64,000 bases of DNA from Candidatus Latescibacterota bacterium (GTDB taxonomy: Bacteria > Latescibacterota > UBA2968 > UBA8231), in NCBI GenBank assembly GCA_964291625.2, contig OZ220089.1, positions 3,328,001 through 3,392,000 of the forward strand, in the 5' to 3' direction. The notes under the pieces were generated by a model. That model saw only the letters and a program-made list of their open reading frames with translations, did no database searches and was not told the DNA's origin. The translations under genes and the position numbers were made by a program. Positions 40,157 through 51,984 of this stretch are shown here, piece after piece (position 1 is the first letter of the stretch; every line of letters begins with the position of its first letter).

Positions 40157-40597
40157 GTGAGCCGCTCGCGCCTGCTGTTCCTGTGCACGGGGAACTCCTG
40201 CCGCAGCCAGATGGCCGAAGGCTGGGCCCGCCACCTGCGCGGCGACGCCTTCGAGGCCCACTCCGCCGGCCTCGAGGCCCGCGGCCTCGACCCGCGGGCG
40301 GTGGCCGTCATGGCCGAGGCGGGGGTCGACATCTCCGGACAGCGGTCGCAGAGACTGGACGAGACCGGCCTCGACTTCGACCTGGTGGTCACGGTCTGCG
40401 ATCACGCCGCGGAGAGCTGTCCCCTCTTTCCGGGATCTGCGAAGGTCCTGCACCGCGGCTTCGAAGATCCGCCGAGGCTGGCCGCCACCGCCTCCGGTGA
40501 GCAGGAGGCCCTGGACCACTACCGCCGCGTGCGCGACGAGATCCGGGAGTACGTGGCCGGCCTGCCGCTGACCGGGGAGGACCCGGGCCCCGGCTGA
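40157..40597 (+). CDS. arsC: thioredoxin-type arsenate reductase (LMW-PTP fold)
   Basis: LFLCTGNSCRSQMAEG, TVCDHAAESCP, FEDP, RRVRDEI. Confidence 0.9.
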   Translation: MSRSRLLFLCTGNSCRSQMAEGWARHLRGDAFEAHSAGLEARGLDPRAVAVMAEAGVDISGQRSQRLDETGLDFDLVVTVCDHAAESCPLFPGSAKVLHRGFEDPPRLAATASGEQEALDHYRRVRDEIREYVAGLPLTGEDPGPG

Positions 40598-49744: not shown

Positions 49745-50212
49745 ATGATCACGCCCCAGCAACCGTCCGGCGAGCAGCCGCGGGCCAAGGCGAAGAAGGG
49801 CATCACCTTCGGCGCCTTCGACCTCTTCCACGCCGGCCACGTGCTCATGCTGCAGGAGGCCAAGACGGTCTGCGACCACCTGATCGTCTGCATCCAGACC
49901 GACCCCACCATCGACCGCCCCGGGAAGAACAAGCCGATCCAGAGCATTGTCGAGCGCCAGATCCAGGTGTCGGCCTGCAAGTACGTGGACGAGATCATCG
50001 TCTACGACACCGAGGCCGACGTGGTCGAGATCCTGCGCTCCGTCGACTGGGACGTCCGCATCCTCGGGGACGAGTACCGGGACACGGACTTCACTGGCCG
50101 CGCGGAGTCCTTCGACCGCTGCTACTTCAACACCCGGCCCCACACCTTCTCCAGCTCCGAGCTGCGGCTGAGGGTGGCCCGGGAGACGAAGGAGCCGGAA
50201 GAGGCCGGCTGA
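49745..50212 (+). CDS. glycerol-3-phosphate cytidylyltransferase-like (TagD family)
   Basis: FGAFDLFHAGH, DPTIDRPGKNKP, CKYVDEI, RPHTFSSSELR. Confidence 0.85.
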   Translation: MITPQQPSGEQPRAKAKKGITFGAFDLFHAGHVLMLQEAKTVCDHLIVCIQTDPTIDRPGKNKPIQSIVERQIQVSACKYVDEIIVYDTEADVVEILRSVDWDVRILGDEYRDTDFTGRAESFDRCYFNTRPHTFSSSELRLRVARETKEPEEAG

Positions 50213-50222
50213 GCCCCCGCCT

Positions 50223-50573
50223 TCAGTCGAGGATCTCCTCCACCCGCTCCTCCGGCCGGGCGATGACGGCCCGGTCACCGCGCACGCAGATGGGCCGTTG
50301 CATCACCCCCGGCTGCTCCAGCAGCAGCGCCACGAGGGCGTCCGCCGCCGCGTAGTCGTCCAGGTCGAGGCCGAGCTCCTCGAAGGAGCCCGGGTGGATC
50401 ATCTCCCGGGGGTCGCAGCCGAGCAGCTCCAGGAACCTCCTCAACTGCGCCTCGTCCGGCGGGTGGTGCAGGTACTCGATGACGTCGAACTCGACGCCTC
50501 GGGCGCGCAGGATCTCCATTGCGCCCCTCGACTTGCTTCAGCCGGGGTTGTGGTAGAGGGTGAGCTTGTCCAC
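50223..50573 (-). CDS. arsC: glutaredoxin-type arsenate reductase (ArsC/Spx family), probable selenoprotein (UGA codon 12)
   Basis: RBS GGAAAGGA + GTG; MDKLTLYHNPG-TGA-SKSRGAMEIL...IEYL...QRPI...ARPEE; TGA (50538-50540) at the HNPxCSKSR catalytic Cys. Confidence 0.85.
50499..50531 (-). promoter_or_regulatory. putative bacterial SECIS hairpin
   Basis: UCG(A)GG-G-GCGCA-AU-GGAG-AU-CC-UGCGC-G-CC-CGA; apical loop G about 21 nt after the UGA. Confidence 0.6.
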
Positions 50574-50595
50574 GGCGGTTTCCTTTCCGTTCGAG

Positions 50596-51984
50596 CTATT
50601 CGAAGAGCAGCACCCCGAAGCGGTCGGGGCGGTGGGCGTTGCCGTAGGTCGGCACCCACTGGCCGTACTCCGAGGCGTTGCCGATGCGCACGCGGGCCAC
50701 GTTGAAGCCCCACTCCACGCCCGGCGCGGCGGGGCCCTCCTCCAGCTGCGCCGTCGGGATCGCCGCTTCGACGACCCAGAAGGTGTCGGCCACGGCGGTG
50801 CCCACCTCGATGGCGCCGGTCCATGAATCGCCCGGCCGTCGGGGCCCGTGGTGGCTGTCCTGGATCGTGCCGAGGGTGTTGAGGATGAAGTGATAGAATG
50901 ACTGGCTGTCGCGGTTGCTGTCGATGAAGATCTCCAGGCAGTCGTCGGTGTGGACGTCGCCGTCCCGCTCCGTCTCCGCCGCCACGAGGTTCGCCGTGTT
51001 CGGCTCGTAGCCCTTCACGGCGACGAAGAGGGTGTCGGCGCGGTAGCCGATCCAGGCCTCCGAGCGGCCCTCGGTGGGCCGCACCGTGAGCCGCCAGATG
51101 CACTGGTAGAACTCGGTCACCGGCTGCACCGGCCGCCACGCCGGCTCGTCGAGGAGACCATCGATGCGCGGGCTCTCCTTCAAGGCGGGCACGCGCGCCA
51201 CCATGCCGAGCTTCTCCAGGTACTCCCGGCCGCGGTCCGGGTCGCCGTTGGCGTAGAACAGCTTGCCGAGCTTCTGGTGGATGTTGACGCTCCCCGGCGC
51301 CAGCTCCAGCGCCGAGAGCAGCACCTCCTCGGCGCCGGCCGCGTCGGCCGCGAGAAAGAGCCTCTCCGCCTCCCCCGCCAGGTCCTCGGCCAGCACCTCC
51401 AGCCACTCCCGGGCGGCCTCTCGCAGCTCCTCCGGCTGCCCGGTGGCGATCAGGTCCTGCAGCAGGGCGGCGAAGCTCTCCTTCTGGGCCGCGTCCAGCA
51501 TGTCGGGGTCCACCCGCGTGCCCCAGTCGTCGTGCCAGTCGGAGGACATGAACTCGAGGGCGGCCAGGATCTCGCCCTTCATGGCCGGATCGGTCTCGGC
51601 CTCGAAGCGCGCCAGCAGCGGGGGCACGGCCTCGGGCCGACGCAGGTTGCCGAGGGCGCGGGCGACGCCCGCGCGCACCCGCGGCTCCGGGTCCTCCAGC
51701 CCGGCCACGAGGCTGGCGAAGATGCGGTTGTCGGCCTCGCGCAGGTAGAGCCGGTAGAGGGACTCGGCCAGGTCGGCGCGGGCCCTGGCCGGCAGGGAGC
51801 GGTCCTCGAAGGCGGCGATCAGCGGATCGACGGCCGTGCCCTTGGCCATGTTCAGGGCCAGCCGCGCTTCCTCGAGATCACCGTCGCCCTCGACGATGGT
51901 ATCGATGTGGCGCTCCACGGGGTCGCCGCAGGCCGCCGGCCCGCCGAGGGCGCCTGCGAGGAGGAGGGCGCGCGCCGGGATCAC
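50596..51984 (-). CDS. lipoprotein with HEAT repeats, TPR-like helix and CBM9-like domain
   Basis: GTGA coupling; PAAC lipobox-like; LEDPEPRVRAGVARALG; PRIDGLLDEPAW, DDCLEIFID, WVVEAAIP, WGFNVAR. Confidence 0.75.
   Translation of the reverse strand: MIPARALLLAGALGGPAACGDPVERHIDTIVEGDGDLEEARLALNMAKGTAVDPLIAAFEDRSLPARARADLAESLYRLYLREADNRIFASLVAGLEDPEPRVRAGVARALGNLRRPEAVPPLLARFEAETDPAMKGEILAALEFMSSDWHDDWGTRVDPDMLDAAQKESFAALLQDLIATGQPEELREAAREWLEVLAEDLAGEAERLFLAADAAGAEEVLLSALELAPGSVNIHQKLGKLFYANGDPDRGREYLEKLGMVARVPALKESPRIDGLLDEPAWRPVQPVTEFYQCIWRLTVRPTEGRSEAWIGYRADTLFVAVKGYEPNTANLVAAETERDGDVHTDDCLEIFIDSNRDSQSFYHFILNTLGTIQDSHHGPRRPGDSWTGAIEVGTAVADTFWVVEAAIPTAQLEEGPAAPGVEWGFNVARVRIGNASEYGQWVPTYGNAHRPDRFGVLLFE

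Follow-up and report, generated by a model that had tools for sequence, protein, structure and literature searches.

The window analysed here, a stretch of 64,000 nucleotides from a Candidatus Latescibacterota bacterium (contig OZ220089.1, positions 3,328,001 to 3,392,000), contains on its minus strand a reading frame of the ArsC family with an in-frame TGA at the position of the catalytic cysteine. This raises the question of whether the triplet marks a broken gene or encodes selenocysteine (Sec) and, in the second case, which RNA structure directs its recoding. Read from a GTG, the frame encodes MDKLTLYHNPG, continues after the TGA at 50540-50538 with SKSRGAMEIL..., and ends at a TGA at 50225-50223. 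The original prediction had proposed a ribosome-binding site, the GTG start, and the product MDKLTLYHNPG*SKSR, and each of these elements was re-read on the minus strand. It had also remarked that the ORF track begins at 50519, and the mechanical ORF list makes the same call, with just a 98-aa piece (50223-50519) that starts from the ATG at codon 19. The features of the locus are as follows.

50223..50573, minus strand: CDS of the ArsC-family Sec protein, 116 codons, GTG start, predicted Sec at codon 12, TGA stop at 50225-50223 (from translation)
50538..50540, minus strand: in-frame TGA, predicted Sec codon, residue 12, in the motif U-S-K-S (UxxS) (from alignment and conservation)
50581..50588, minus strand: Shine-Dalgarno-like GGAAAGGA, with a 7 nt spacer to the GTG at 50573-50571 (read from the sequence, putative function)
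50502..50527, minus strand: hairpin 1 of the MFE fold, with an AGAU apical loop
50477..50501, minus strand: hairpin 2, with its invariant core at 50497-50482 and an AGUU tetraloop at 50491-50488

When translated through the TGA, the gene product matches the ArsC family of Pfam (PF03960; 1.5e-11, 44.8 bits against a cut-off of 24), with residues 7-114 aligned to the whole profile (positions 1-79 of 79). It also matches TIGR00014, arsenate reductase (glutaredoxin), with an E-value of 2.5e-28 and a score of 98.9 bits, which lies below the equivalog cut-off of 106.05. In a search of solved structures, the best matches were the glutaredoxin-type arsenate reductases 3rdw, 1jzw, and 1i9d (E ~1e-16), Spx following at ~1e-5. 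Residue 12 aligns with Cys12 of the 1i9d/1jzw arsenate reductase, the ArsC of E. coli plasmid R773, which bears out the claim that the UGA occupies the site of the catalytic cysteine. The alignment with this enzyme extends over the full length (E = 8.5e-16), and both proteins have the YHNPxC/U...SR loop and the Arg94 and Arg107 equivalents, whereas the window gene has Sec for Cys12, His for Arg60, 116 instead of 141 residues, and a location outside any ars operon. In R773 ArsC, a triad made of Arg60, Arg94, and Arg107 surrounds the nucleophile and has a catalytic role. This triad is incomplete in the window gene, where Arg94 and Arg107 are present and the Arg60 equivalent is a His (codon 60, 50394-50396, minus strand). 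All unique Sec forms described below (82/82) have Ser15 and the equivalents of Arg94 and Arg107; His at the Arg60 site is found in exactly the 38 members of the window gene's clade, labelled Latescibacterota/Gemmatimonadota, and Arg remains there in the 44 other Sec forms as well as in each of the 12 Cys forms.

How far the TGA is conserved was examined in two sets of genomes. Among 41 related genomes, including the window's own, 35 had a match and six had none. Of the 41, 25 carry an ortholog (59-99% identity) whose frame contains a single TGA; eight encoded a full-length homolog at 40-50% identity without any stop, and two gave partial matches only. All of the 20 relatives' loci that were fetched have the same TGA codon, preceded by a conserved (I/L/V)YHNxx, and the ortholog starts, ATG or GTG, lie 9-11 codons before the TGA. 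Conservation of the YHNPx motif upstream of the TGA thus argues that translation runs through it. A scan of public genomes, limited to one per species, found 165 relatives, of which 80 were kept; codon 12 is TGA in 75 and TGC in four of these, the last locus (L100) being unparsed by the motif regex and placed outside all counts. TGA and TGC therefore alternate at this codon while the protein is conserved on both sides, the pattern that the original prediction had proposed to look for.

After pooling, the data set comprised 95 Sec-form genes (82 unique nucleotide sequences) and 12 Cys forms. The Sec forms are 50-96% identical in protein sequence to the window gene and come from records labelled Latescibacterota, Gemmatimonadota, Binatia, Gammaproteobacteria/Pseudomonadales, Myxococcota, Methylomirabilota, and Entotheonella. 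A quick ML tree was computed with the Sec/Cys column left out and was rooted on the eight Cys forms of the related genomes. In it, the 82 Sec forms and the remaining four Cys forms grouped into one clade (SH-aLRT 100), with the eight rooting sequences outside; the tree is based on few columns, and many of its forks lack resolution. The window gene falls within a 38-member clade made only of Sec forms (support 98). One of the Cys forms inside the Sec clade (L083; JAOTUO010000415.1, 660-725) has TGC at codon 12 and keeps both hairpins, with a GGUU loop in hairpin 2; its sequence looks like that of a recent Sec-to-Cys conversion.

Decoding of UGA as Sec requires a dedicated machinery, and the original prediction had both deduced that this organism decodes Sec and suggested a search for selA, selB, selC, and selD. 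All are present in the window's genome (5.9 Mb, two contigs, 69.6% GC). In the genome profile search, selA (517.6 bits) and selB (341.6 bits) each exceed their cut-off, and a tRNA-Sec scores 74.2 bits, with a TCA anticodon according to ARAGORN; the three form one cluster (C1:3423794-3427224), ~32 kb beyond the end of the window. The selD gene (324.8 bits) itself has a single in-frame TGA at the usual active-site position and would thus encode a Sec-containing SelD. Among the 41 relatives, selA exceeds the cut-off in 37; of the 25 that have a TGA form, 24 do so, the exception being a 430-contig assembly (G038). The selA match of the window's genome (G000:C1:3425864-3427224, minus strand) is split between two frames, one piece covering positions 3-409 of the profile and the other 408-454. 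The frame switches at a C run near 3426004, which may be an assembly indel or a real frameshift that removes the last ~46 residues; if real, it could impair Sec synthesis.

Besides ArsC and selD, family searches identified four selenoprotein candidates in this genome, namely a SelW-like protein (CxxU) and three peroxiredoxin-like proteins (UxxC). With selD, this makes five candidates beyond ArsC, located as follows.

G000:C1:3423195-3423410, plus strand: SelW-like candidate (CxxU), one in-frame TGA, adjoining the tRNA-Sec gene
C1:4518905-4519282, plus strand: selenoprotein candidate, one in-frame TGA
C1:1948708-1949082, minus strand: selenoprotein candidate, one in-frame TGA
C1:2300666-2301016, plus strand: selenoprotein candidate, one in-frame TGA
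C1:1116503-1117309, minus strand: selenoprotein candidate, one in-frame TGA

All five have, ~17-21 nt downstream of the UGA, the G-rich loop of a 5-8 bp hairpin, and in three of them this loop contains a GGU run. None of the genome's matches to PF02627 (three) and PF00384 (two) contains a TGA. A genome-wide scan for an in-frame TGA combined with a redox motif and a hairpin with an NGUN tetraloop returned 74 candidates, mostly Arg/Pro-rich off-frame noise, and was dropped.

Could the gene nevertheless be a pseudogene, that is, a Cys-type arsC in which a recent nonsense mutation created the TGA and of which only the 98-aa fragment from the ATG at 50519, or nothing, is made? The mechanical ORF consists of that piece alone, and four close homologs do have TGC at codon 12, both of which fit such a loss. 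However, TGA stands at the same codon throughout 95 genes (82 unique), with protein identities as low as 50% and labels of several phyla; the 11 codons before it are conserved and in frame; the ATG at codon 19, the annotated start, is ATG in only 20 of the 82 unique Sec forms; the Pfam domain needs residues 7-18; and the genome has a complete Sec machinery. Alternatively, the TGA may be a sequencing or assembly error for a true TGC or TGT, in an assembly that may indeed hold indels, as the apparently frameshifted selA suggests. Against this, the identical TGA occurs in independent assemblies, and contigs from four public runs, belonging to four studies, show only TGA and no other letter over 50538-50540, although strain differences occur at 50519-50528 and elsewhere in the same run contigs, those at codons 16-19 being synonymous or conservative. 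The TGC that the original prediction had considered as a possible outcome of such a check is thus absent from these contigs. Because the TGA is kept across relatives and no other letter is seen in the runs, it did not arise by nonsense mutation or through a sequencing error; we rate the former as highly improbable and the latter as improbable in the extreme. Among the public data, a contig of 501 nt that comes from an RNA library covers 50223-50700, which would fit transcription that enters from the upstream gene and passes the UGA, but also DNA carry-over. Five runs labelled sponge metagenome, including one metatranscriptome (X2), contain 40-52% of the sampled words of 50100-50700.

With the TGA taken as a Sec codon, the next issue is the RNA structure that follows it. 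The 76-nt region 50545-50470 folds into two adjacent hairpins with a free energy of -33.7 kcal/mol (z = -2.63; 2 of 200 shuffled sequences are as stable). Hairpin 1 begins 10 nt after the UGA and its AGAU loop 22 nt after it, the canonical position of a bacterial SECIS. The GC-rich SECIS-like hairpin announced by the original prediction is thus present and at the expected place, but it turns out to be the less conserved of the two. Three pairing registers were tested for hairpin 1, with 85.6%, 64.1%, and 58.6% of cells paired, and both sequence and register differ between clades. The best register (17-21 with 32-36, five core pairs; 85.6% over 64 distinct rows) is conserved and does not covary: zero pairs change on both sides, and its covariation score was reached by 224 of 500 shuffles. 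None of the three registers showed convincing covariation. Third codon positions are under no constraint in hairpin 1. Compared with synonymous-codon permutations, the region is nevertheless more stable in the window gene (z = -1.95) and in the 82 Sec forms (mean -1.29), as opposed to the 12 Cys forms (mean 0.02).

Hairpin 2 has a 6-7 bp stem (mean dG -8.9 kcal/mol) and an AGUU loop that begins 46 nt after the UGA. It is perfect in all 82 unique Sec forms as against one of the 12 Cys forms, with 100% of cells paired over 64 distinct rows, and it varies only in ways that preserve pairing: the basal pair switches between A-U and G-U, and one other between G-C and G-U. Among the four Cys forms inside the Sec clade, three have lost it. 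At codons 19-22, the third-position entropy is 0 in Sec forms versus 1.0-1.7 bits in Cys forms; hairpin 2 is the sole stretch with zero synonymous variation in Sec forms, and the VEFDV that it encodes is invariant in Sec forms only. The stem allows four synonymous C-to-U changes that would retain pairing as G-U, and three of them are absent from all 82 unique genes, which come from several phyla; the contigs of the four public runs have no variant in this stretch. In the comparison with synonymous-codon permutations, the region has a mean z of -1.79 in Sec forms and -0.45 in Cys forms. From these comparisons, we conclude that both hairpins are linked to the decoding of Sec, hairpin 2 being the most constrained part. 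A scan of 50380-50620 against Rfam (E <= 10) gave no family, just a chance 13-nt match to a lncRNA.

The consensus of bacterial SECIS elements, as given in a 2026 review, consists of a loop of 3-9 nt, a G in the first two loop positions, a spacing of 16-37 nt, and an MFE of at most -7.5 (PMC13188914). Set against that description and its bSECISearch model, hairpin 1 obeys the spacing rule and shows a G in the second loop position. Hairpin 2, with its 6-7 bp stem, its 4-nt loop with G and U at positions 2-3, and its mean dG of -8.9 kcal/mol, differs by a loop 46 nt after the UGA, past the 16-37 nt window. Its role in SelB binding is uncertain because this distance exceeds both the rule and the ~17-21 nt seen in the genome's other SECIS candidates. 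According to one database paper, non-canonical SECIS elements make up ~12.6% of entries (PMC13326102).

Taking these lines together, we consider it very probable that the gene encodes a thioredoxin-fold, glutaredoxin-type selenoprotein of the ArsC family whose nucleophile, Sec12, is inserted at the UGA by means of SelB and tRNA-Sec, an RNA structure inside the coding sequence directing the recoding. The open frame and its homology, the conservation of the UGA, the presence of the Sec machinery, and the constraint at the RNA level are direct observations, and they and the run contigs speak in favor of the Sec12-ArsC put forward originally; the actual incorporation of selenium and the identity of the hairpin that binds SelB are what we infer from them. 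In the proposed mechanism, SelB and tRNA-Sec would insert Sec at the UGA 50540-50538, and the structure just 3' of it, hairpins 1 and 2 jointly, would act as the SECIS. Hairpin 2, with the G-U of its tetraloop, would be the sequence-specific part, and hairpin 1 a structured spacer that places hairpin 2 at the mRNA entrance while the UGA is in the A site. We propose only tentatively such a two-hairpin SECIS for the Sec-ArsC family, in which SelB would recognize an invariant hairpin 46 nt from the UGA and the variable hairpin 1 would be a folded spacer. The missing synonymous C-to-U changes suggest that the sequence of the stem may be recognized as well.

The gene may instead be a real selenoprotein gene whose SECIS is hairpin 1 alone, as the original prediction had it, hairpin 2 being kept for pausing, for mRNA stability, or for a second factor. 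The spacing of 17-21 nt between UGA and loop in all five other SECIS candidates of the genome agrees with this possibility, as does the stability of the hairpin 1 region relative to synonymous permutations, seen in Sec forms and not in Cys forms. On the other hand, the variation of hairpin 1 in sequence and register between clades (down to 64.1% and 58.6% of cells paired) and its free third codon positions contrast with hairpin 2, which alone has zero synonymous variation, occurs in every Sec form, and has disappeared from three of the four Cys forms of the Sec clade; we therefore see in hairpin 1 alone a conceivable explanation, short of a probable one. Whichever hairpin is recognized, the reaction catalyzed by the protein also has more than one reading. 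"Arsenate reductase" is here the name of the family, and the substrate may, by analogy, be arsenate, or another oxyanion or a thiol target, which would be reduced, following the scheme of R773 ArsC, via an Se-substrate adduct that glutathione and glutaredoxin then resolve. Because of the His at the Arg60 site and the lack of ars genes beside the gene, we can only infer arsenate reduction. The protein may well be an ArsC-fold selenoprotein other than an arsenate reductase, either a general selenol oxidoreductase or a regulator-like protein of the Spx/YffB type. Its TIGR00014 score below the cut-off (98.9 versus 106.05 bits), the His that replaces the Arg60 equivalent throughout the 38-member clade, the lack of an ars context in the window's genome and in six diverse loci, and a separate LMWPc-type ArsC-like gene 10 kb away all point in that direction. 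Solved glutaredoxin-type arsenate reductases are nevertheless the best structural matches by far, ahead of Spx, and neither Ser15 nor the equivalents of Arg94 and Arg107 vary; we regard this reading as close to evenly balanced with its negation.

The genomic context was inspected for further hints of function. As originally noted, the gene lies 22 nt past an operon encoding an ABC permease and a HEAT-CBM9 protein: the upstream 754-aa ORF, with HEAT repeats and CBM9, ends with a TAG at 50598-50596, which leaves a 22 nt gap to the GTG start, and Pfam identifies the ABC-2 permease as well as the HEAT and CBM9 domains. The immediate neighbors are the HEAT-CBM9 protein, the ABC-2 permease, a cytidylyltransferase-like protein, and PhyH (Pfam assignments). 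Neither these immediate neighbors nor the 10 flanking ORFs of six diverse loci include an ars gene, and genomic context therefore gives no support to arsenate reduction. The HEAT-CBM9/ABC permease synteny is common to same-genus loci only (6 of 99 loci), and because it is confined to the genus we rejected a functional link between this operon and arsC. One of the scanned loci (L044; JAGWAK010000071.1) carries the label Acidimicrobiia, although its gene and the window gene share 90% identity, and its neighborhood (ABC permease, HEAT-CBM9, arsC, cytidylyltransferase, PhyH) is entirely common with same-genus genomes, including the Latescibacterota-labelled L045; its label or binning looks wrong. 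The original prediction had also reported a thioredoxin-type ArsC 10 kb away. An LMWPc-family ORF is indeed present at 40157-40597 (plus strand), which makes this plausible, but the assignment is not firm, since its best NCBIfam match, arsC_pI258_fam, scores 143.5 bits against a cut-off of 174.3. The long ORFs adjoining it have no Pfam match.

Selenoproteins of this kind have been described before. The Sargasso Sea study of 2005 reports a Sec arsenate reductase with a UxxS motif, 14 sequences, and a figure of the predicted SECIS (PMC1088965); the GOS study of 2008 counts 77 Sec sequences and 784 Cys homologs under pfam03960 (PMC2398784); a table in the 2026 review lists a Sec arsenate reductase under TIGR00014 (PMC13188914); and ArsC-like selenoproteins are known from Deltaproteobacteria (PMC1794560). 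As far as these accounts go, the published protein ("ArsC 1", UxxS, pfam03960/COG1393/TIGR00014) and the one studied here are alike in Pfam family, in the UxxS motif with Sec at the catalytic Cys, and in the existence of widespread Cys homologs; nothing essential differs, except that the hosts here are mostly MAGs labelled Latescibacterota and Gemmatimonadota, with a clade that has His at the Arg60 site. Judging from its homology, the UGA at the Cys position, the alternation of Sec and Cys, the machinery, and the downstream stem-loop, the window gene is by sequence a member of the Sec-containing ArsC (UxxS) family. Since this family was present in the 2005 and 2008 surveys and in the 2026 review, the gene adds to a known selenoprotein family. 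The "hidden selenoprotein" of the original prediction is therefore hidden in the sense that ordinary gene calling misses it, but it is no novelty, as it belongs to the published "arsenate reductase UxxS" family. What is modestly new is the invariant distal hairpin at a non-canonical spacing and the His60 clade.

These data indicate that Sec is decoded in this lineage, most of whose nearest relatives carry a Latescibacterota label, and that at least six of its genes encode selenoproteins. Standard gene calling reduces the present one to a 98-aa fragment without active site, and the ~95 orthologs gathered here are probably hit by the same error. Hairpin 2, a conserved element, lends itself to clean tests of bacterial SECIS elements that depart from the consensus model, and recognition of its stem sequence, if true, would define a distinct class of bacterial SECIS.
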